NCBI GenBank assembly: GCA_030867685.1
Contig: JAQOWU010000008.1
Location: 3,038,001-3,102,000, forward strand
Direction: 5' to 3'
DNA: 64,000 nt
Source of the DNA: Wickerhamiella versatilis
Lineage: Eukaryota
The notes under the pieces: generated by a model
Databases searched by the model: none
Told to the model about the DNA's origin: nothing
What the model saw: the letters and a program-made list of their open reading frames with translations, nothing else
Made by a program: the position numbers and the translations under genes
Shown here: piece by piece, positions 1,766 to 25,894 of the stretch
How positions within the stretch are numbered: the stretch's first letter is position 1
Layout: each line of letters opens with the position of its first letter

Positions 1766-4700
1766 ATGCGCGTTCAGAACCTGTTTATTGATGGGTTTAA
1801 AAGCTACTCGCGGAGGTGCGAAATAGATGACTGGGATCCACAGTTTAATGCCATTACGGGACTTAATGGTAGTGGTAAGTCTAATGTCCTGGACGCAATA
1901 TGCTTTGTTTTAGGCATAACATCTATGTCAACGGTTCGTGCAGACAAGCAGCAGGATTTGATCTATAAGCGTGGCCAAGCCGGTATTACCAAGGCAAGTG
2001 TAACAATTACTTTCGACAATACGGATAGGAATCGAAGCCCGTTTGGTTATGAGGATTTTCCTACCATCACAGTGACGCGACAGGTGGTATTGGGTGGTAG
2101 CAGCAAGTACCTCGTGAATGGACGTCGGGCTCAGCAGAGGGATGTCCAGTCTTTATTTCAAAGTGTGCAACTTAATATCAATAATCCAAATTTCCTTATA
2201 ATGCAAGGACAAATAACCAAAGTTGTGAACATGAAACCTCAGGAAATTTTAGGATTGATAGAGGAGGCAAGTGGTACACGTATGTTTGAGGAGCGTCGAG
2301 AAAAAGCTGAAAAGGATCTTGAAAAAAAGATACCAAGGTAGCTCAAATACGGCAATTGCTACTCGAAGAAATTGAGCCTAAACTTGCAACGCTGCGCAAA
2401 GAAAGAAGTGAGTTCTTGGAATTTCAGGAGATCCAGACAATGGTGGAGCGTAATGAAAAACTCATAGTTGCCTGGGATTATCTTGCACTACAAAACGAGC
2501 TTAATGCACTATTAGAACAGAAACAAGCAGCAGAGGTGCAGGTCCAGACATTAGGGGCTCAGCAGCATGAAGCGAAACTACGTTGCGAACAAATTGAATC
2601 AAGCCTTATAGAGCTACGGCAGACAACTGAATCATCAGAAATGGCGGTCAGCCTAGAGCAAGATCTTCAACATCAACAGGAGGAATATGCACGACTTCAA
2701 ACGAGCTTCGATGGGTCTAATGAGTCCCTTCGTGAAACCGAACAGAGAATCAAGTCACTTGTCCAGGAACGTGAATTTTTTGAGAGAGATCTTTCTACCA
2801 AAGAACATGACTCGAGAAAGTTTCGGGAGGAGTTCCATTCTCTGAGCTCACGACTTGAACAGTGTCAAGCTGAACTCCGGCAAAGACGTGATTTGCTGGT
2901 GTCACTAGAGACCGGATTGAGCACGTCAGTTGAAAGTGAGTCTGGATTTGCCCAGGCTACTAAGAGGGCAAGAGAAGGTGTTCTTACAGCCGAAGATCGC
3001 ATTCGCACTCTGGAAAGAGAGAAGTCAGAACTTGAGACGTCGCAAAGTAATAAACTGACTCTGGAAAACGAGCTCAATCAGGTTTCTAGCGATCTCCATA
3101 AGCGAAAATCTGAGATAAAAACCATAGAGGCCAGTCTTCCCTCAGATAGTGCGTCATCCGAAGCCTTTCACAAATTGAAGCAGGAGGCGAACAATGTTGA
3201 GAGGCAAATTCAACAATTAGAGCATGACCGTGAAATTATTTTGACCTCAGAGTCACGTTTGGAACTCCCGCCTCTTGGAAATGTGCCGCGTCAAGAAGTT
3301 TTTGGTCGCGTTGCCTCTTTATTTCGTGTCAAAACAGAACACAGAAATAAAATGGTAGCATTGGAAGTGTGTGCTGCCCATCAACTTTGGGATCTTGTTG
3401 TGACTTCCGATGCAATAGGAAGCCAAATATTGCAACAAGCGCAAAGACGTCTAACGGTGCTTCCACTAAACCAAATGTATAAACACAGACGTGATGGTGA
3501 AAATTTCCCCGTGAATAAGATACCTGGTGCTTGGATGGCAGTTACTCTACTGGACTTTGATAAAAAGTTTAGGCCAATTATGGACTATGTTTTCGGTAAC
3601 CATATCATTTGTGAGACACAGGAGCTCGCTATGGAAATGTGCAATAAGCACAGACTCAAGGCGGTCACTTTTGAAGGTGACGTATTTGACCCGCAGGGAA
3701 CCGTATCAGGTGGTTCAAGTAATAACCACGGTGGAGAAGAAAAGCTAGCTGTGGTAGAAAGATTTGTTGGAGTATGCGAAAAGCTTCAGAGTATTTCTGG
3801 ATTAAGAAAAAGTATGCAAGCGCAATTACTTGAAGCAAATGGCCATATGGAAAGTGCTCGACGCATCACGGAGGAACTAGCGATAAAATGCCATGAAGCA
3901 GAAGCTATAGAGGAACGGGGTGAAGTGCTCAAAGGTCAACTGAAATCTATAGAAGGCAAAAAGAATGACATCAAGAGGTTGGATGTCGAAATATCTCAAG
4001 CAACGGCGCTGCTTTCCAAAGCCAGAGATCTTCTCACGCAGACTGAACGTGAAGGCGATGAGTTCCAGCAAAATAAGTCTGGGAAGCTCGATGAAATAAG
4101 AGCCGATATCGCTCGTCGCGAGAAAGAGATAAAATCTCTTCAGATGGAGTATGACAAGCAAGAGAGGCAGCATACAGAAATCGAAATCGATATTGCTGGC
4201 TCTCGAGAGCGAAAGGAGCAGCTCTCCAACGAGGAGAGAGATGCGAATTTGCTCTTGAATGAACTTAAGGGTTCAGTCACGAGATGTCAGGCCGAAATGA
4301 GTCAAACTCAAACGATAATTGCTGAGCTTGAAGGCAGACTAGAGGTAGAACAACAACGTCTGTCGAAACATAATCAGGAAATATCCAAGATGGAGCAATC
4401 AATTACAAGCACTAAAGCCGCAGTAACCGAGTTTGAGTTGCAAGCGAAGCGAAGCCAGCAGTCCCTACAAGAAACGGATGAGCAGATAAAGCATCAAAGG
4501 CTAATGTTTGAGCAAATTGTGAAGAACAACGAATGGGTTGCTGATGAGAAGTCTCAATTTGGCCAAAGTAATGGGCCCTATGATTTCAACAGAGTCGATA
4601 TTTTGTCTGTAAAATCACAGCTTGGTGGTTCCCGAGAGCGTCTCTCAGAACTTTCTCAGAATGTGAACTTCCGTGTGGTTGCTATGATCGAGCGCCTCGA

Positions 4701-17202: not shown

Positions 17203-18318
17203 CTATGATGGATCGATTATAGGTTTATTGTTGTAACGCATGTTAGGCGCTGTTGTGAATACTCTTCCAACGGTTTTTTCGTCAATTGCAGAATGCGAGA
17301 GCCTAGCGCCGACATCTCTAAGCTTAGGTGGGTAAAGATTTGGACTTGACCTAGAGCGCTTCCGTGAACCTACGGGGAGCAACCTAGGAGAAGTTGCTTC
17401 AACAGCGGATTCGTCTTCTGTTGGTATAATATTAGAAATGCGAATTATTCGCCTTCTGTGTTTTCGAGGTGAACTTGACGGACTTGTCTCTTCAAGAGGT
17501 TCTAATATGTCATCTACTCTCATGAGGTTGCCATCTCGAGAAATCTCGGGTAACTGGTTTCGTGAAATAATGGCATGCGGGATTTTGGTATCTTCATCTT
17601 TTAGACTCAACGTATTAAACGGCTCAATCATAGGCAGAGGCTTCTGAGAAACGCCCAGCGTGGCTAGACGAGTATGCTCTACGTGGTTCTGACCCCATCT
17701 TCGAGGTCCAAGAGCTGGGTCTGGTGGCTTGCCATTTGTGACTTCCCAGACTGTCTCGGGGATATCTTCATCAAAGGACTCACTGAGCTGGATTCGCAAT
17801 ATTTCTGTAATCATTTGATTCACACCTGGGATCATATCAAGGGAAGAATCAGCGGAAATATGTCTGAGAGGATCGCCCCGGAATTGGACGCAGAGCCCGT
17901 GGGGGGTGTAAACCACATCAACTAGTGCATCAAGATGGATGTCATGTAGTTTAAGCGAGAAAGGCAATATTAGGCTTGCATCCGCTCCAATTAATCGAGG
18001 CTTGACCCACGCGGGCAAGTCTGGGCTATCCATTGGCTCACGTAGGGGATTTCCCTCGATGCGAGTGGATAATGCTAAGGATGCCGATCCTGAATATTTT
18101 AGTGCAAATACCACATGTGCTCTTTGCGTTGTCACTTGGTTTATTGACTGAAAAGCCAGGTGTGGGGGGGTCGTGCCAAAATCGATGGCCTCAACCCTGA
18201 GCGGTTTCACCATTATTGGAGGTCGTTTCGACTTAGATATGGCCTCAGTCATCGTACATTTCGTACGCTCCTGGAGGTCTGGGACGTCGAAAAAGCGCCA
18301 ATTAAAGCGAAAGCTCAT
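17203..18318 (-). CDS. MDM34: ERMES complex subunit Mdm34 (SMP domain)
   Basis: Starts MSFRFNW; contains SKRPPIMV, DFGTTPP, EGNPL and FRGDPL. Confidence 0.88.
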   Translation of the reverse strand: MSFRFNWRFFDVPDLQERTKCTMTEAISKSKRPPIMVKPLRVEAIDFGTTPPHLAFQSINQVTTQRAHVVFALKYSGSASLALSTRIEGNPLREPMDSPDLPAWVKPRLIGADASLILPFSLKLHDIHLDALVDVVYTPHGLCVQFRGDPLRHISADSSLDMIPGVNQMITEILRIQLSESFDEDIPETVWEVTNGKPPDPALGPRRWGQNHVEHTRLATLGVSQKPLPMIEPFNTLSLKDEDTKIPHAIISRNQLPEISRDGNLMRVDDILEPLEETSPSSSPRKHRRRIIRISNIIPTEDESAVEATSPRLLPVGSRKRSRSSPNLYPPKLRDVGARLSHSAIDEKTVGRVFTTAPNMRYNNKPIIDPS

Positions 18319-19886: not shown

Positions 19887-21539
19887 ATGTCTCTCAATGA
19901 CGACAGGGACCAAGGCGGATTGTCGTCTTTCCAGTATTCCAGAAAGGGATCTGAAGGGTTAGAATTAATGGAAGAGGGTGCAGAGGGATTGCCGGTACTG
20001 GAGGAATTGGGTTTCAGCAGGGCAGTTTCACAAGTAGAGGAAGAGCTACCCGAAGCCGTTCAATATAGCAGTGCCAAGAATTCAAATTTCTGTAATACGC
20101 CAGTAGGAGGGCGCTCAACAAGGACGAAAGCAAAACGGCTAGCATCTGTGCTGTCTCGAGTACAGTATGCAATGGAGGACGATATCCGCGCTACCCCGGC
20201 AATGCGGCCACCACCTAGGGCAGATTACTGGAAGACTAACGTTGAGTCCAATGCACAGAAAGTAAGGAATAAATTGGGACTTAGATCTCAGTGTCTTTCA
20301 ATATACCGCGACCTGGGGTATGCATGGGATCCACTTCAAATCATTCGAAACCGAAAAGCTCGGAACCACTCACCGCCGAAAGGTAATATGTGGGAAATAC
20401 GTGTCTCTGAAATTTATAACGATATTATGTGGCTCAAGCATAGGGCCTTGGTGGGCTCATCACCACCAACAGATGCTGCTCCAAATGAGGGCCGCTCTAG
20501 TCCCCAATCCAGTACATCTTCACCGGAAATAATGGAGCCCTCAACTCCGCCACCTGACAAGACGGAGGATGACTGGTGTTGGGGCAGTGTTAAAACCCCA
20601 ACACTTCTCACGCCAAGCGCACAGAAACACGTCGGCGGATTGCAGTCTCGCTCCTCAGAGCTGATAGAACGGCTCCAATCCAGGCATATCACAGACAACA
20701 GCTCACAGAGTGGCGACGATATGGTACCTGCTCATCCCAAATTTAGCCGGAAGTCCTCAGGACATCTTTCGAGCCGCCCAAGCCTGGCAGACCTCTCGAA
20801 TGCAGAGGCTGTGCACACAAATACTGAGAACGGTCTTTTGGCGCCTCCAGTGCAAATTGGTGAAGGGAGACATATGTCGTCAGGATCAATAGGTACTGTT
20901 TCGTCAGAGTCGAATATGTCTGATCGGCTTTTACAAACAGAGAGCAGTTCTCATAGAAGTTCTTCATCGCCGTCGGCACCTGTGGATTTTGATCTTTCGC
21001 ATTATAGCTGCTTCAAGCGACCCGAGGAAGCCAATTGCAACAACGCGGAGGCGGCGGAGCTTGAATTCATGTGCACGGTACTCAGAGAACTTTTGCGAAG
21101 GATCCGCTACCTCTGTAAATCTGTGGAGAGTAAGGTGGTTCCGCCCACTTGTGACATATACCGTGTACAGGTGAAGCGGGAGATTGTACCGAAGTATTTG
21201 GAATATCTTGCTGCTATGGAAAAAACAGCAATTGATAATCATCATCAACTTGATCAAGAGGTGGTAGGTGCACTTGACTCCTTAATGGTGGTGTCTGATA
21301 TGATGAGCTCCGAAGTGAACACCACCCTGAATCGACAATTAAGGGAGACGAGTGCCCAGCTCGATCACCTTTGTTCTTCTCATCAGCAATGTCTTATGCT
21401 TAATATAGGATTTGGCATTCTGGAATATTTAATGGTAGGAATCATGTGGACTTATTGGGCCATTGTGACATTCTCTCTCAACCTCGCGCGGACTGTTAGC
21501 GCTTCGTATTCGTTTGCGTCTTGGGCTTGCTTGATATGA
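19887..21539 (+). CDS. Mtc4-like protein (low-complexity Ser-rich region, C-terminal TM helix)
   Basis: 550 aa. The motif WDPLQIIRNRKAR resembles the (Y/W)xPLQxIRNRKxR block recalled for Mtc4-like fungal proteins; C-terminal LEYLMVGIMWTYWAIV. Confidence 0.55.
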   Translation: MSLNDDRDQGGLSSFQYSRKGSEGLELMEEGAEGLPVLEELGFSRAVSQVEEELPEAVQYSSAKNSNFCNTPVGGRSTRTKAKRLASVLSRVQYAMEDDIRATPAMRPPPRADYWKTNVESNAQKVRNKLGLRSQCLSIYRDLGYAWDPLQIIRNRKARNHSPPKGNMWEIRVSEIYNDIMWLKHRALVGSSPPTDAAPNEGRSSPQSSTSSPEIMEPSTPPPDKTEDDWCWGSVKTPTLLTPSAQKHVGGLQSRSSELIERLQSRHITDNSSQSGDDMVPAHPKFSRKSSGHLSSRPSLADLSNAEAVHTNTENGLLAPPVQIGEGRHMSSGSIGTVSSESNMSDRLLQTESSSHRSSSSPSAPVDFDLSHYSCFKRPEEANCNNAEAAELEFMCTVLRELLRRIRYLCKSVESKVVPPTCDIYRVQVKREIVPKYLEYLAAMEKTAIDNHHQLDQEVVGALDSLMVVSDMMSSEVNTTLNRQLRETSAQLDHLCSSHQQCLMLNIGFGILEYLMVGIMWTYWAIVTFSLNLARTVSASYSFASWACLI

Positions 21540-21707: not shown

Positions 21708-23441
21708 ATGCCCGATATCATACCGCCGACGACAGCGAATGTCCTCAGGCGCCTAGGGGACTCATCAAGACCACCTTCGCGGCCTATTAGTCGTGGAGTT
21801 AGTCGCCAAGGTAGTTATTGTGGCGGTGGAGAGAGTATATACTCCCTTCGCTCCAAAATGGATAGTCCTGAAAATATTGGCTCCATCGATGATAGCGAAA
21901 CAGCTGCAATGAACTCATCTATTGAAACTTTGAAGCCTTCAGTAACAGTCTTTCTTCTCGCGATACTTACATCCTTTTGTGGGTTTATGTTTGGCTATGA
22001 TACAGGGTACATCTCAAGTGCACTTGTAATGATTAAAGACGACCTTGGCACAGAGCTTAACTCGAAGTGGAAGGAGTTAATTACATCGGCTACATCGCTG
22101 GGTGCATTTATTTCTGCATTAGTTGCAGGTGGATTGGCAGACGCATTTGGTCGTAAGTGGGTGATAGCCTTTGCCAATGTGATGTTTCTAACTGGTGGTG
22201 CGATGCAGACTGGTGCTCACAACATGTGGACCATGATAGTTGGTCGCTTTATTATGGGCTGGGGTGTTGGCGTTGCTTCTTTGGTTGCTCCGATGTATCT
22301 GAGTGAAGTTGCACCCACACGATTCAGGGGCCGCCTGGTGGTTATGAATGTTTTGGCAATTACTTTTGGACAACTTATATCATATTCAATTGGCTATGGG
22401 TTGAAAAATATCAATAACGGCTGGAGAGTTTTAGTGGGGCTTTCCATGGTGCCCTCCGCTGCACAAATGATTATGTTTGTTTTTATGCCCGAGACGCCTA
22501 GATACCTGATGTTGCGGGGACGCCGAGAAGAAGCTCGGGAAATTCTTGACCGGGTATATGTGGGCGCGTCTGACTCAATGCTGGATACCAAATTAGCGGA
22601 GATTCAGAGCGATGTCCCAGAATCGGCAATGGTTTTCGAATCAAATCCGGATCACAAGACTAAAATAAAGTCTGCATTGATCACTTTCCGTCATAATCTA
22701 CATGAGTTGTTTGTTCAGCCTCCGAATTTGCGTGCCCTGGCAATAATCGTCGGTCTCCAGCTGCTCCAGCAATTTTGTGGTTGGAATGCACTAACTTATT
22801 ACTCGAGCACTATTTTTGAAATGGGAGGTTTTCGTGATCCACAAGCAGTCTCAATCGTTGTTACGGCCACAAACTTTGTATTCACTATTGTAGCATTTCT
22901 CTGTATCGATCGCATTGGCCGCCGTATACTACTGCTGTCCACCATGTGGATTATGGGTGTAGGGCTTATTTTGTCGGCCGTCGCATTTGATCATCTACCG
23001 TGGCGGGAGCTAGTCAATGGAAACTCCACTGCAGCAGTAAACGAGGCAAAAGGCTCATGGGCAGATATTTTGATTGTATTCACATTCGTTTTTGCGGCAG
23101 GATACGGATCTGGTATTGGCTGCGTACCATGGGTTCAAAGTGAAATGCTTCCCATGGAGGTACGTGGTATGGGTACATCCTTTTCCACGGCGGCAAATTG
23201 GGCTGGCTCACTTATTGTATCGGCCACATTCTTGACCATGTTTCAAAATATTACTCCCATGGGTACTTATGGGTTTTATGCTGGCATGTGTTTCTTAGGG
23301 GAACTCTTGGTTTTCCTGCTTTATCCTGAGACAGCAGGACTCAATTTGGAAGAAATACAAGGTCTCCTACACGGTGGATTCCGAGTCAGTGACTCTCTCA
23401 AATTGAGCCGCCAAAGAAAACAGTTATACCGTAACTATTAA
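21708..23441 (+). CDS. Myo-inositol transporter (sugar porter family, Itr1/Itr2-like)
   Basis: GFMFGYDTGYISSAL, KELITSATSLGA, LADAFGRK, PETPRYL, QQFCGWNAL, PETAGLNLEE. Confidence 0.9.
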   Translation: MPDIIPPTTANVLRRLGDSSRPPSRPISRGVSRQGSYCGGGESIYSLRSKMDSPENIGSIDDSETAAMNSSIETLKPSVTVFLLAILTSFCGFMFGYDTGYISSALVMIKDDLGTELNSKWKELITSATSLGAFISALVAGGLADAFGRKWVIAFANVMFLTGGAMQTGAHNMWTMIVGRFIMGWGVGVASLVAPMYLSEVAPTRFRGRLVVMNVLAITFGQLISYSIGYGLKNINNGWRVLVGLSMVPSAAQMIMFVFMPETPRYLMLRGRREEAREILDRVYVGASDSMLDTKLAEIQSDVPESAMVFESNPDHKTKIKSALITFRHNLHELFVQPPNLRALAIIVGLQLLQQFCGWNALTYYSSTIFEMGGFRDPQAVSIVVTATNFVFTIVAFLCIDRIGRRILLLSTMWIMGVGLILSAVAFDHLPWRELVNGNSTAAVNEAKGSWADILIVFTFVFAAGYGSGIGCVPWVQSEMLPMEVRGMGTSFSTAANWAGSLIVSATFLTMFQNITPMGTYGFYAGMCFLGELLVFLLYPETAGLNLEEIQGLLHGGFRVSDSLKLSRQRKQLYRNY

Positions 23442-23464
23442 CTTAAGATGATGCCAGCATATAT

Positions 23465-23692
23465 CTACGTACTAAGCTTTTCCATAACTTCCTCATCTGT
23501 AGGTTCCACAGAAATATCACCATTGTCGAAAACAACCACAGGTATGTTACGCCGACCACTGAGTTTTTCGGCAACAATTTTTTGATCAGGATGTGCAACA
23601 AGATCTATATATTCATATTCAATCCCATGTTTAGATAGTAGAGCCTTGGTACGACGGCAATCTCCACACCAATCAGCACCATACACTTTCAT
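23465..23692 (-). CDS. Small bacterial-type glutaredoxin-like redoxin (NrdH/mycoredoxin class), 75 aa
   Basis: The ATG at 23692 gives MKVYGADWCGDCRRTKALLSKHGIEYEYIDL...SGRRNIPVVVFDNG...VEPTDEEVMEKL, with a CxxC motif and the cis-Pro motif NIP. Confidence 0.85.
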   Translation of the reverse strand: MKVYGADWCGDCRRTKALLSKHGIEYEYIDLVAHPDQKIVAEKLSGRRNIPVVVFDNGDISVEPTDEEVMEKLST

Positions 23693-23702
23693 TCTTAGTG
23701 TA

Positions 23703-23738
23703 TTCTGGAAGAATCTCGAAGCATTACATAATATATAA
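23703..23738. promoter_or_regulatory. Heat-shock element plus TATA box between the redoxin gene and SSE1
   Basis: TTCtgGAAgaATCtcGAA at 23703-23720 is four alternating nGAAn units with one mismatch. TATATAA at 23732-23738. Confidence 0.65.
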
Positions 23739-23803
23739 GTAACCACCCATCTTTGCATACTAAGGGACAAAGCTCGAATTTTTCATTATTTAACACACAA
23801 AAT

Positions 23804-25894
23804 ATGAGTGTGAGTGTTCCTGTTGGTATTGATTTGGGAAGCGGGAAGACAACTCTGGGAGTTGCCCGTAACCGCGGAATCGACATTGTTGTTAATGAAG
23901 TGTCTAATAGAGCGACGCCCTCGCTTGTGGCCTTTGGCCCAAGGTGTCGCTTCCTTGGCGAAGCAGCAAAGAGCCAGGAGACCAGTAATTTGAAGAATAC
24001 AGTTAGCTCGTTGAAACGCTTGGTTGGACGTAGAGGGGACGATCCCGGTATTGTACGCGAGCGCGCATTTAACGGAGCAACCCTCGAGCCGGTTAATGGC
24101 GAGACTGGTGTCAAGGTTTCTTATCTTGGTAAACCAGCTGAATTCACATTCACGCAGCTGACCGCTATGTACCTCGGTAAGATGCGTAGCACTTTGCTTC
24201 AAGATACTAAGGGCAATATCAATGATGTTGTTATTGCTGTGCCTTCATACTTTGTTGACGCGCAGCGCCGGGCAGTGGCTGATGCGGCAGTTATTGCTGG
24301 TCTGAACCCAGTTCGCATCGTAAATGACGTTAGTGCTGCAGCTATCGGGCATGGTGTTTTCCGTACCGACCTGCCTGAAGACAGCTATAAAAAGATTGCA
24401 ATTGTGGATATCGGCTACTCTGATTACACGGTGAGCATTGTTGCCCTGAAGAAGGGTGAGGGCAAGGTTCTTGGAACATCATGTGAGCGCAATTTCGGCG
24501 GTCGTGACCTTGACCTGGTTATCACCCAACACTTTGCTCGTGAGTTCGCTAGCAAGTATAAGATTGATGTTGCATCTAATCCTAAGGCGTTTGGCCGTGT
24601 TGTGGCACAGTCCGAGAAGCTCAAGAAGATTCTCTCAGCGAACTCTTCTGGTATGTTCAACGTTGAAAGTCTGATGAATGACATTGACGTCTCATCAAGT
24701 CTTACTCGTGAAGATCTCGAGAGTTATCTCGCTGATAGTTTGGCACATATTAAGGACCCCATTTCTCAAGCACTCAGTCAAGCCGGGTTAACTCCAGATG
24801 ATCTGGATGCTATCGAGCTCATCGGTGGATGCACTCGTGTGCCATCAATCAAGCAAAAGATCAGCGAGGCATTTGGTGGCAAGCCTTTGTCTTATACTAT
24901 GAACCAAGATGAAGCAGTGGCTCGTGGTGCTGCCTTCTTGTGTGCCGCTCACTCCCCAACTGTTCGTGTGAGGCCTTTCAAGTTTGAGGATATCAATAAT
25001 CACAGTGTCACATTCAAATGGGATAAGACGGAGGATGAGGATACCGACTCTCTCGAAGTGTTCCCTCTCGGCTCTCCTTTCCCTGTGACGAAGGTTGTCA
25101 CTCTCTTCCGCAAGCAGGATTTCGAGATTGAAGCATTCTACACGCATCCCCATCATATTGAGGAGGGTATCTCCCCACATGTCGGCAAGTGGTCGATTAA
25201 GGGTGTAAAGCCTGCTTCTAACGGTGATGCCGTCGCAGTCAAGTTGAAACTCCGCCAGGACCCTTCAGGACTCTACACTGTGGAGTCTGCTTATACTGCC
25301 GAGGAACAACTTGTGCAGGAGCCCGTGGAGGGATCAGAGGAAGGGGAGACGAAGGAGGTCAAGAAGTGGGTTAAGAAGGATGATCTTACCATCGAGCATT
25401 TCGCCCCTATCCTTAGCCCCGAGCAGCGTGATTTGTTGTTAGAGGCCGAATCTAAGATGGTGGCCGAAGACAAACTCGTTGCAGACACCGAAGACCGAAA
25501 GAACGCACTGGAAGAGTATATTTACGATATCCGAGACAAGGTGGAGGGTCCGCTTGCCGAGTTCGCCAGTGAGGAGGAGAAGGAGAAACTTTTCAATATG
25601 GCAATGGAAACCGAAGACTGGCTCTATGGTGATGGCGAAGACGCATCCAAGGGTCAATATGTCGCCAAGTATGATGAGCTTGCGGCACTTGGTAACTTGA
25701 TTAAGGGCCGTAAGACCTCTAAGGAAGAGGAGCAGCGTCAAGCAGCCCGTGCGAAGCAAGAAGCTGAGCAGCAGCGTAAGATGGCAGAAAAGATGCAAGA
25801 GCAGAAGGCTGCGCGTGAGGCAGAGCAAGCCAAGAAGGCAGAGCAAGAAAAGGAGACAGCAGGTAACGATGAGGAAATGCCTGATGCACAATAG
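23804..25894 (+). CDS. SSE1: Hsp110 chaperone / Hsp70 nucleotide-exchange factor Sse1
   Basis: The first ATG at 23804 gives MSVSVPVGIDLG; RGIDIVVNEVSNRATPSLVAF, NQDEAVARGAAF, DTEDRKNALEEYIY. Confidence 0.93.
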   Translation: MSVSVPVGIDLGSGKTTLGVARNRGIDIVVNEVSNRATPSLVAFGPRCRFLGEAAKSQETSNLKNTVSSLKRLVGRRGDDPGIVRERAFNGATLEPVNGETGVKVSYLGKPAEFTFTQLTAMYLGKMRSTLLQDTKGNINDVVIAVPSYFVDAQRRAVADAAVIAGLNPVRIVNDVSAAAIGHGVFRTDLPEDSYKKIAIVDIGYSDYTVSIVALKKGEGKVLGTSCERNFGGRDLDLVITQHFAREFASKYKIDVASNPKAFGRVVAQSEKLKKILSANSSGMFNVESLMNDIDVSSSLTREDLESYLADSLAHIKDPISQALSQAGLTPDDLDAIELIGGCTRVPSIKQKISEAFGGKPLSYTMNQDEAVARGAAFLCAAHSPTVRVRPFKFEDINNHSVTFKWDKTEDEDTDSLEVFPLGSPFPVTKVVTLFRKQDFEIEAFYTHPHHIEEGISPHVGKWSIKGVKPASNGDAVAVKLKLRQDPSGLYTVESAYTAEEQLVQEPVEGSEEGETKEVKKWVKKDDLTIEHFAPILSPEQRDLLLEAESKMVAEDKLVADTEDRKNALEEYIYDIRDKVEGPLAEFASEEEKEKLFNMAMETEDWLYGDGEDASKGQYVAKYDELAALGNLIKGRKTSKEEEQRQAARAKQEAEQQRKMAEKMQEQKAAREAEQAKKAEQEKETAGNDEEMPDAQ

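Follow-up and report, generated by a model that had tools for sequence, protein, structure and literature searches.

A probable actinobacterial redoxin gene long established between two native genes of the yeast Wickerhamiella versatilis

How did a small open reading frame (ORF) whose product resembles actinobacterial redoxins come to lie between two ordinary genes of the yeast Wickerhamiella versatilis, and what might such a protein do in its host? The window analysed here is the whole 64,000-nucleotide stretch of contig JAQOWU010000008.1 (positions 3,038,001 to 3,102,000). The ORF occupies 23465..23692 of its minus strand, from an ATG at 23690-23692 to a TAG stop at 23465-23467, and specifies 75 residues (P0001). 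It is more than a chance frame, since its product matches a Pfam family, its closest database relatives reach E 4e-42 and its GC content by codon position is strongly periodic (0.605/0.342/0.263). The reading favoured here, with a probability of about 0.8, is that this is a real gene, transferred long ago from an actinobacterium to a yeast in the clade formed by Wickerhamiella and Starmerella (W/S clade) and vertically inherited since, which encodes a 75-aa thiol-disulfide oxidoreductase. The donor bacterium was probably Micrococcales-like.

An earlier sequence-only reading had described an intact 75-aa ORF inside a longer ORF call, and the minus-strand translation is identical to the sequence that it quoted. 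The enclosing stop-to-stop frame amounts to 101 aa from a TTG (23465-23770), or to 97 aa if begun at an upstream in-frame ATG (23756-23758). The 22 additional codons of the 97-aa form, which is the one called in other assemblies (23693..23758, minus strand), are probably not part of the protein: two relatives, P0003 and P0004, are called at 75 and 76 aa without this extension, and the RNA depth over 23715-23775 is about 3-7, compared with 55-84 within the ORF.

The surroundings of the ORF are those of a eukaryotic chromosome. On one side lies a native MFS sugar-type transporter gene (21708..23441, plus strand; PF00083, 388.6 bits) and on the other an equally native gene for an Hsp70 of the Hsp110/SSE1 type (23804..25894, plus strand; PF00012, 497 bits), whose best named matches are yeast Sse1 proteins, the top one from Starmerella bacillaris (69%). 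The 23 bp between the convergent stops of the transporter and the redoxin (23442..23464) and the 111 bp shared by the divergent redoxin and SSE1 genes (23693..23803) were both re-measured and agree with the distances first reported. The former spacer is so short that the 3' UTRs of the transporter and of the redoxin must each overlap the neighbouring gene. Among the other large ORFs of the window, 21 of 23 match ordinary protein families, some of them specific to eukaryotes (SMC, the largest subunit of RNA polymerase, Nup98/96, isocitrate lyase, KRE6 and VPS13, for example); the window has a GC content of 0.456, is gene-dense and lacks AT-rich end-domain character. The same stretch is present in 20 public runs, which come from 12 studies; of the 20 rows, 12 may be the source of the window itself. 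In a second strain a contig (22800-23710) bridges the transporter and the ORF, and RNA reads cross the junction too. Independent data sets show the redoxin gene in physical linkage with native eukaryotic genes. As to the transporter, it had been named an inositol transporter; its family match is Sugar_tr, the sole family tried. A link between an inositol-type transporter and mycothiol, which contains inositol, was rejected, the transporter being native-looking and nothing connecting the two.

The product belongs to the glutaredoxin fold family (PF00462, 50.8 bits against a cut-off of 22.9, E 1.9e-13). An AF2 model of the 75-aa protein (pLDDT 96.8) shows the order strand-helix-strand-helix-strand-strand-helix, with strands at residues 2-5, 27-30, 52-54 and 60-62 and helices at 10-21, 37-45 and 66-73. 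Model and sequence together place a CxxC (C9, C12) at the N-terminus of helix 1 and P51 before strand 3, as expected of a thioredoxin-type fold. The active-site Cys-Gly-Asp-Cys is specified by codons 9-12 (23657..23668, minus strand); an alignment of 76 sequences shows no variation at C9 and D11 and very little at C12. Codon 51 (23540..23542, minus strand) encodes the proline of an Ile-Pro-Val motif, at the cis-Pro position of thioredoxin-fold proteins; I50, P51 and V52 are invariant in the same alignment and P51 aligns with the corresponding proline of Mrx-1. Foldseek retrieves glutaredoxins, Mrx1 and NrdH as top matches (query-normalised TM-scores of 0.85 for 3nzn, 0.82 for NrdH 4fiw and 0.73 for 2lqo).

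Family models separate these possibilities further. The top NCBIfam match is mycoredoxin TIGR02200, at 63.2 bits and below the curated cut-off of 89.5. NrdH-redoxin TIGR02194 scores 32.0 bits against 85.75, with CVQC and WSGFRP both absent from P0001. The suspicion that this is not a native fungal type of glutaredoxin proved sound, the eukaryote-type dithiol model TIGR02180 scoring 16.6 bits against a cut-off of 87.25; the Grx3 model also falls far under its cut-off. As the earlier reading pointed out, no glutathione-binding residues of the kind expected in classical glutaredoxins can be made out in the 75-aa protein. As judged from its motifs, it is a glutaredoxin-fold CxxC redoxin of a mycoredoxin-like GADWC(G/R)DC subfamily with a VEP...KL end.

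The best solved relative is mycoredoxin-1 of Mycobacterium tuberculosis (Rv3198A; PDB 2lqo/2lqq; TIGR02200), which a profile of 21 sequences matches over its full length (2lqo, E 8.7e-17). Both proteins share their size, the glutaredoxin fold, W-C-G-x-C at the start of helix 1, the cis-Pro position and a C-terminal P-x-x-x-E-V-x-x-K-L. However, Mrx1 carries CGYC (WCGYC in 2lqo and in bacterial locus L081) where the yeast protein has CGDC, and CGYC is the active-site motif of the characterised Mrx-1 according to PMC4360819. The nearest bacterial relatives of the yeast protein score 69.9-75.8 bits on TIGR02200, whereas the true Mrx1 in one such genome scores 97. In 10 of 24 genomes a true Mrx1 is accompanied by sub-cut-off matches of similar score, whose active-site motif was not read; this would be consistent with a subfamily of paralogues. 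The GADWC(G/R)DC proteins are apparently a sister group of mycoredoxin-1, seemingly an Mrx1 paralogue, rather than Mrx1 proper. To our knowledge yeasts do not make mycothiol, so that the Mrx1/MSH/Mtr pathway cannot operate in this host.

NrdH-redoxin (TIGR02194; PDB 4fiw, 1h75, 4f2i) is likewise a small CxxC protein of glutaredoxin fold, and the match of the yeast redoxin to 4fiw is close (TM 0.82, rmsd 1.3 Å). NrdH combines a glutaredoxin-like sequence with a thioredoxin-like reductant, and the yeast redoxin would work as NrdH does if thioredoxin reductase were its donor. In contrast, the NrdH genes of the same bacterial genomes (L087-L089) encode CVQC and WSGFRP, which the yeast redoxin lacks, and the 52 scanned neighbours of the bacterial homologues include no ribonucleotide-reductase gene.

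The distribution of relatives points to bacteria. In a genome collection, relatives are encoded by at least 534 of 589 pattern-matched stretches; 77 of the best 80 loci are from Actinomycetota, mostly Micrococcales, with 45-60% identity. The family comprises at least 5020 proteins at E <= 1e-10. Two word-index protein searches gave organism-named matches that, among the matches listed, are all Actinomycetota (7 of 7 and 22 of 22), with no fungal organism name among these 29. The nine ESM-Atlas cluster rows shown are all bacterial (100% Bacteria in eight and 81% in one). A metagenome scan with an alignment of yeast-like sequences found 206 relatives in 274 stretches; among the best 80 of the 206, none exceeds 61% identity or lies in a yeast context, and the top 36 loci have a GC content of 0.61-0.75. 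The marine loci of low GC content belong to a different subfamily (IPTL...NPG).

A careful tree of 89 rows and 87 columns, rooted on a true Mrx1, recovers a clade of 12 made up of the window protein, P0003, P0004, P0114 and eight relatives whose residue make-up is not of the high-GC kind (UFBoot 100, SH-aLRT 86). Its sister is a sequence from Pseudoglutamicibacter (92/82), both within the actinobacterial radiation and among Micrococcales, in a tree that leaves 37 of its 85 inner forks without resolution and whose bootstrap had not converged (correlation 0.975). A quicker tree places an uncultured actinobacterial group inside the yeast-like clade, and a single clade of the four best yeast candidates is not rejected by an AU test (p 0.285). 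The bacterial, especially actinobacterial, origin claimed from the letters is supported by the mycoredoxin model, the 2lqo match, the 77 of 80 loci, the named matches and the nested tree; the homology search and phylogeny proposed as its check gave only actinobacterial names, among the matches listed, and yeast sequences nested in bacteria.

P0003 has 80% identity to the redoxin, and P0117 has 88% identity to the neighbouring SSE1 protein; each is recorded from a single 57,403-bp contig, and it appears that the two share one contig. P0004 (66% identity) is seen on 13 contigs, the longest of which (53,666 bp) matches none of the SSE1 contigs listed. We infer a yeast origin of P0003, P0004 and the eight further clade members from their residue make-up and, for P0003, from the matching 57,403-bp contig. 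The family-invariant residues occur in P0001, P0003 and P0004 alike, by definition, as the 76-sequence alignment includes them; C12 is also kept. A strain diverged by about 2% differs at one position of the 228-bp ORF, at 16 positions in 642 compared bp of the transporter and at two positions of the 23-bp spacer. Codon usage is fully host-like. GC3 is 0.263 in the redoxin ORF, 0.423 in 25 window genes and 0.897 in 80 bacterial homologues, and a CAI-like index with the window as reference reaches 0.854, above 99% of 224 size-matched chunks. Conservation and codon usage suggest that the transferred redoxin is probably functional; its translation and catalytic activity are predicted.

The transfer is less surprising than was held at first, because the host clade is known for hundreds of bacterial xenologs (PMC13376923; PMC5897096). 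Like these (for example ADH1, SUC2 and the enterobactin operon), the redoxin gene is embedded among native genes, is old, has no donor above 70% identity and is apparently common to more than one lineage, as PMC13376923 and PMC5897096 describe for the xenologs. It differs from the published examples, whose emphasis in those two papers is metabolic, in encoding a redoxin, and in lying in a gene-dense, ordinary stretch free of AT-rich end-domain character. The main text of PMC13376923 contains none of the words 'redoxin', 'glutaredoxin' and 'NrdH', and that of PMC5897096 lacks 'redoxin', the gene lists of both being in their supplements. No glutaredoxin or mycoredoxin transfer into Wickerhamiella/Starmerella yeasts was found in the titles and abstract openings searched.

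The region is transcribed. An unstranded library (two runs of one sample, summed) covers most of the ORF at an RNA depth of 52-84, with about 21-23 in the last bin of the ORF and 3-7 in the promoter gap; over the ORF the depth amounts to about one tenth of that of SSE1. Going from the transporter into the ORF, it decreases progressively and then falls before the ATG. Because such a library does not tell the strands apart, the reads could stem from the 3' UTR of the transporter, whose gene is convergent. At 23677 and 23691, just inside and at the start codon, fragment ends form small clusters (5-6 molecules) that would fit transporter poly(A) sites. Two further runs are not counted towards expression: X20 gave no placed reads, and X15 is only presumed to be RNA. 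A scan of 23300-23900 for sigma-70 promoters and intrinsic terminators gave nothing above chance. The 111-bp region, which has the lowest RNA depth, holds a heat-shock-element-like repeat (23703-23720) and the sequence TATATAAG (23732-23739, plus strand). A redoxin promoter would have to fit in this space, where the TATA-like box of SSE1 also lies. The heat-shock pattern, with one mismatch allowed, has two matches in the window against 0.20 expected. Since the divergent promoter region is common to both genes and contains this repeat, stress co-regulation of the redoxin with SSE1 is plausible.

From what is known of the family, the thiolate of Cys9 at the N-terminus of helix 1 would attack a client protein at a disulfide or an S-thiolated cysteine, Cys12 would then resolve the mixed disulfide, and the oxidised redoxin would be re-reduced by a donor of the host. 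NADPH-thioredoxin reductase is the most likely donor, at odds a little short of even, and glutathione with glutathione reductase the next most likely. What favours the former is that several bacteria have this redoxin domain fused to low-Mr thioredoxin-reductase modules. An N-terminal redoxin joined to a thioredoxin-reductase-like flavoprotein occurs at 6 of 160 fetched loci (L061, L129, L130, L132, L133 and L134); the L061 fusion matches Pyr_redox_2 at 155.7 bits, and the remaining five show a CATC motif. Identity between the fused forms and the yeast proteins is only 41-53%. Counter-evidence on the donor comes from three members of the yeast-like clade (P0030, P0237 and P0238), in which CGDT replaces CGDC and which cannot make the intramolecular disulfide on which thioredoxin reductase acts. 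CxxT/S variants are found in bacteria as well (L136, L139, L149 and L169).

Several other explanations of the locus deserve weighing against an old transfer of a gene that still functions. Bacterial contamination or a chimeric assembly would account for the bacterial affinity of the gene, and nothing further was found in favour of it; it is refuted by the position of the ORF on a single contig with yeast genes 23 bp and 111 bp away, by its recurrence in 20 runs of 12 studies, by the reads and contigs of a second strain that cross the junction, by a GC3 of 0.26 against 0.90 in bacterial homologues and by a best bacterial identity of 60%, and its probability is negligible. It is very improbable, too, that this is an old, vertically inherited fungal glutaredoxin-like gene that was lost in most fungi and merely resembles actinobacterial proteins. 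Small ORFs are often left unannotated, so that named fungal matches could be missing from protein databases, and the origin of the eight clade members is not established. Yet fungal names make up 0 of 7 and 0 of 22 of the organism-named matches listed, the eukaryote glutaredoxin model is far from its cut-off (16.6 bits vs 87.25), and the yeast sequences nest within, not outside, Micrococcales (55-60% identity), in a family widespread in bacteria, with at least 534 relatives in the genome collection and at least 5020 proteins. More serious, although still unlikely, is the view that an ORF of bacterial origin is now a silent or decaying relic, with no protein made and RNA due to the transporter 3' UTR only. 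The monotonic fall of depth away from the transporter in an unstranded library, its drop before the ATG and the fragment ends at 23677 and 23691 agree with this view, as do a promoter space of just 111 bp common to SSE1 and the failure to find bacterial promoter or terminator relics or clear signals of the gene's own within 23300-23900. Against it, the frame is intact and the family-invariant residues are kept in relatives of 80% and 66% identity, when the very conserved SSE1 itself is only 88% identical in the case of the 80% relative. Moreover, GC is periodic by codon position, the CAI-like index exceeds 99% of size-matched chunks of real genes and strain-level variation is below that of the flanks. 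After the 3' dip, depth also rises inside the ORF (68 to 84 and 52 to 72), a weak effect that is not significant.

If the gene is functional, it may still not use thioredoxin reductase. A monothiol de-glutathionylating enzyme that uses glutathione, and would be a glutaredoxin by convergence of use, is a tentative alternative. The loss of the second cysteine in P0030, P0237 and P0238 (CGDT), where no dithiol cycle would be possible, argues for it, along with the bacterial CxxT/S variants; according to PMC4360819, Mrx-1, which is its closest relative to have been characterised, works by a monothiol mechanism with a low-molecular-weight thiol. The redoxin-thioredoxin-reductase fusions point instead to another donor, neither the TIGR02180 nor the Grx3 model comes near its cut-off, and the CGDT sequences are not established as yeast. 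The residues presumed to bind glutathione in classical glutaredoxins are, as said, not recognisable. More speculative is a joint reading, in which a redoxin of the mycothiol system was rewired to Trr1 or glutathione and captured by an Hsf1-type SSE1 promoter, giving a stress-induced chaperone-plus-reductase pair. Were this joint reading true, the spread of the gene and the change from CGDC to CGDT would record a new monothiol enzyme evolving after inter-domain transfer.

As a transfer, the event is ordinary for the W/S clade, no eukaryotic hotspot for the uptake of bacterial genes being better known. The probable acquisition of this redoxin extends the cases beyond carbon and vitamin metabolism to redox maintenance, with a native cofactor system that is absent from the recipient. 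A 75-aa protein open to simple assays would offer a compact case of a transferred enzyme re-coupled to host electron donors, and the locus also bears on the expression of foreign genes by sharing of a native stress promoter.

The bacterial GADWC(G/R)DC subfamily, sometimes fused to thioredoxin reductase, is seemingly uncharacterised in the searchable literature. Its neighbourhoods were surveyed through 52 of the 154 nearest flanking ORFs of 80 genome loci, hand-picked because they lie close and on the same strand. These 52 neighbours revealed no conserved partner or client gene; they vary between genera and include a GDSL lipase, an SDR, a luciferase-like monooxygenase, a PRK-like kinase, an LD-carboxypeptidase and a glycosyltransferase.

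The minus strand at 23465-23692 encodes an intact redoxin of 75 codons (P0001), running from an ATG at 23690-23692 to a TAG at 23465-23467. The residues quoted in the sequence-only reading are exactly those encoded, and the distances it gave proved correct on rechecking: 23 bp lie between the redoxin stop and that of an MFS transporter (21708-23441, plus strand; Sugar_tr, 388.6 bits), and 111 bp between the redoxin ATG and that of an Hsp110/SSE1-type gene (23804-25894, plus strand; HSP70, 497 bits). The ORF was also rightly described as hidden in a longer call, the frame being open upstream of its ATG and counting 101 aa from a TTG in the mechanical ORF list. It is far beyond chance, as judged by the match to Pfam Glutaredoxin (E 1.9e-13), by homologues to E 4e-42 and by its GC content at codon positions 1, 2 and 3 (0.605, 0.342 and 0.263). 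In other assemblies, a 97-aa form (P0002 and P0113) is called from an in-frame ATG at 23756-23758. Since this 22-codon upstream extension is missing from the called forms of the relatives and RNA depth is minimal where it sits, the 75-aa form, rather than the 97-aa form, is the likely product.

By curated thresholds, the redoxin is outside Mrx1, NrdH and eukaryotic glutaredoxin. Among curated bacterial families it scores highest on mycoredoxin (TIGR02200; 63.2 bits, cut-off 89.5), followed by the YruB-type family, NrdH (32 bits, cut-off 85.75) and then Grx3; eukaryotic glutaredoxin (TIGR02180) lies far behind, at 16.6 bits for a cut-off of 87.25. A profile of the redoxin and 20 relatives gave a full-length match to Mycobacterium tuberculosis Mrx-1 (2lqo) with an E-value of 8.7e-17, the next solved chain being at 3.7e-9. 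The AlphaFold model, for which 76 aligned sequences served as input, has a minimal glutaredoxin topology (pLDDT 96.8), and its Foldseek matches are archaeal glutaredoxin-like proteins, Mrx1 and NrdH, with query-normalised TM-scores of 0.73-0.85. Residues G5, A6, W8, C9, D11, D30, I50-P51-V52 and E63-P64 are invariant in the 76-sequence alignment, and Y4, D7, G10, C12, R14 and K16 nearly so. The active site is C-G-D-C, whereas that of Mrx-1 is C-G-Y-C (PMC4360819) and the NrdH of the same bacteria carries C-V-Q-C together with W-S-G-F-R-P.

Homology searches point to bacteria, mainly Actinomycetota. At least 111 of 118 word-index candidates are relatives, ranked from the same-species form (99% identity) through P0003 (80%, 75 aa) and P0004 (66%, 76 aa) to others at 43-60%, and all seven that carry an organism name are from Actinomycetota. 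When five sequences were used as a profile, at least 5020 of 8000 candidate proteins scored E <= 1e-10; in the best 120, all 22 named matches are again from this phylum, and the named genera include Microbacterium, Brevibacterium, Micrococcus, Timonella, Ruania, Agromyces, Serinibacter and Salininema. With one genome per prokaryote species, 589 pattern-matched stretches yielded at least 534 relatives, and the best 80 of these loci (45-60% identity) comprise 77 from Actinomycetota, two from Chloroflexota and one from a Woesebacteria bin. Among the nine ESM-Atlas cluster rows listed, eight were assigned 100% and one 81% to Bacteria.

The phylogeny agrees. A quick tree of 192 rows was built from all word-index relatives and the 80 loci, with one Mrx1 as the outgroup. 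It pairs the window protein with P0003 as sisters (SH-aLRT 95) and places both, together with P0004, in a 16-row clade (94) deep within the actinobacterial radiation. A more careful tree of 89 rows limited each genus to two loci and took in 33 hand-picked unnamed bacterial-type proteins. Here the window protein, P0003, P0004, a further relative (P0114) and eight unnamed proteins whose residue make-up is not of the high-GC type form one clade (UFBoot 100, SH-aLRT 86), whose sister is a Pseudoglutamicibacter sequence (92/82), with more rows of Micrococcales type branching next; this tree draws on 87 alignment columns only, with 37 of its 85 inner forks open and the bootstrap not fully settled. 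An AU test did not reject a single clade of the four best yeast candidates (p 0.285). The proposal that the yeast acquired an actinobacterial redoxin of the mycoredoxin/NrdH type is thus supported; the protein scores below the curated thresholds of both Mrx1 and NrdH.

The surroundings are those of a yeast chromosome. Ordinary protein families are matched by 21 of the 23 other large ORFs of the window, and eukaryote-specific families include SMC, the RNA polymerase largest subunit, Nup98/96, isocitrate lyase, KRE6 and VPS13. The SSE1 neighbour has its best named relative in Starmerella bacillaris (69%), with Trichomonascus and Sugiyamaella next (60-61%). Two ORFs, at 17203-18318 (minus strand, 371 aa) and 19887-21539 (plus strand, 550 aa), match no Pfam family at E <= 1e-5; the latter closely precedes the transporter and is rich in Ser. 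DNA of the window also occurs in metagenomes of food, food fermentation and sediment, and in runs that all bear one coded organism label. Yeasts of this clade are known to carry many bacterial genes. The Wickerhamiella/Starmerella clade has been described as a hotspot of bacterium-to-yeast transfer, with about 600 xenologs in three species and no donor above 70% identity (PMC13376923), and 211 bacterial genes were reported in one species, 52 orthogroups being common to at least two (PMC5897096). The main texts of these papers, whose gene lists sit in supplements, do not contain the words "redoxin", "glutaredoxin" or "NrdH" in the first case and "redoxin" in the second.

The gene is fully adapted to host codon habits. 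Its GC3 is 0.263, as against a mean of 0.423 for 25 large window genes and 0.897 for 80 bacterial homologues, and of 224 chunks of window genes matched to it in size, just 0.4% fall lower still; its CAI-like index, for which the genes of the window served as reference, is 0.854, above 99% of those chunks, although the two measures are not independent of each other. Such codon habits argue for an old transfer and for translation of the ORF. Moreover, P0003 and P0117, the SSE1 orthologue, are each recorded from exactly one contig, of 57,403 bp in both cases, which makes it most likely that a sister species has the two genes on the same contig. In this candidate sister species, identity is 80% for the redoxin and 88% for SSE1, a very conserved protein. 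We infer that non-coding DNA so far diverged would have lost the open frame of 75 codons or some of the family-invariant residues. In a strain about 2% divergent, differences number 1 in 228 bp of the redoxin ORF, 2 in 23 bp of the spacer, 16 in 642 bp of the transporter and 7 in 797 bp of SSE1.

The redoxin region is transcribed. In two unstranded RNA runs of one sample, with equal mate orientations and reads over 22800-24600, summed depth falls along the transporter from about 455-485 at the start of the covered stretch to about 70-85 at its stop. It then stands at 52-68 (23471-23531), 72-84 (23532-23592), about 55 (23593-23653), 21-23 (23654-23714) and 3-7 (23715-23775), and in SSE1 reaches about 400-730 (mostly 470-700). 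Being unstranded, these reads fit a minus-strand redoxin mRNA or a plus-strand 3' UTR of the transporter alike, as do the few fragment ends clustered at 23677 and 23691. A contig of a presumed-RNA run stops at 23710, and the next begins at 23773; another run gave no alignments here. The convergent stops of transporter and redoxin are only 23 bp apart (23442-23464), so that the 3' end of each transcript must run into the coding region of the other gene, which could give rise to antisense interference.

The 111-bp gap contains a four-unit heat-shock-element-like repeat at 23703-23720 (TTCnnGAAnnTTCnnGAA with one mismatch). It lies 11 bp from the ATG of the redoxin and, read in the SSE1 direction, precedes that gene's TATA-like box (TATATAAG at 23732-23739, SSE1 strand). 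The pattern has two matches in the window for 0.20 expected, and at least two occurred in 1 of 100 shuffles. Such a repeat is expected for SSE1; that the redoxin, whose ATG has an A at position -3, shares this stress promoter can be put forward only as a hypothesis.

Close relatives in five bacterial genomes score 69.9-75.8 bits on TIGR02200, under its cut-off, and a true Mrx1 (97 bits, WCGYC) accompanies them in only one of the five. Among 101 genomes sampled from one such order, 58 have an Mrx1 above the cut-off, 24 a match below it (54-87 bits) and 10 both, as counted by score and not by motif. This coexistence is most simply read as making the GADWC(G/R)DC proteins a paralogous sister subfamily of Mrx1, apparently uncharacterised, to which the window redoxin belongs. 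No shared client or partner gene was found near the bacterial homologues among the 52 ORFs scanned of the 154 nearest, and neighbours vary by genus.

By homology, the redoxin would be a small reductase of disulfides or mixed disulfides, in which Cys9 acts as nucleophile and Cys12 as resolving thiol. Mycothiol synthesis is not known in yeasts, so the electron donor has presumably changed. Mrx-1 itself uses a monothiol mechanism and is recycled via mycothiol and Mtr (PMC4360819). In 6 of 160 loci, bacterial and metagenomic, the redoxin domain is N-terminal to a flavoprotein resembling low-Mr thioredoxin reductases: L061 (2986-4164; Pyr_redox_2, 155.7 bits, the only one of the six scanned with Pfam) and, with a visible CATC motif, L129 (366-1580), L130 (5992-7200), L132 (3586-4566) and L133 (1105-1902), both cut by contig ends, and L134 (4741-6144), with two tandem redoxin-domain copies. 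These fusions suggest that the domain may be a substrate of low-Mr thioredoxin reductases, a type found in yeasts too. The second cysteine is lost in L136, L139, L149, L169, P0030, P0237 and P0238 (CGDT, CGDS, CGAT and CEDT variants). The three proteins P0030, P0237 and P0238, all CGDT, fall inside the yeast-like clade; lacking an intramolecular disulfide cycle, they would depend on a small thiol, for example glutathione. Fusions and CGDT forms are thus leads to different donors. We favour thioredoxin reductase, with a probability of about 0.45; glutathione is a somewhat weaker candidate, and any other donor seems unlikely.

L026, from an Acidimicrobiales bin, encodes at 2980-3534 a fusion of the redoxin domain with an acetyltransferase domain of the GNAT type (PF14542). 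Most of L134-L171 are low-GC loci (0.27-0.35), some on records titled marine metagenome, with a related subfamily of 76-79 aa that has the same YGADWC start and a second half (IPTL...NPG) closer to true Mrx1. The redoxin of L027, titled Streptomyces sp. L7, is identical to that of Leifsonia L029 and placed among Leifsonia sequences, which may point to a wrong genome label or to a transfer of very recent date. L056, from a bin titled Bifidobacterium breve (locus GC 0.53), groups with unnamed sequences, and its label looks doubtful.
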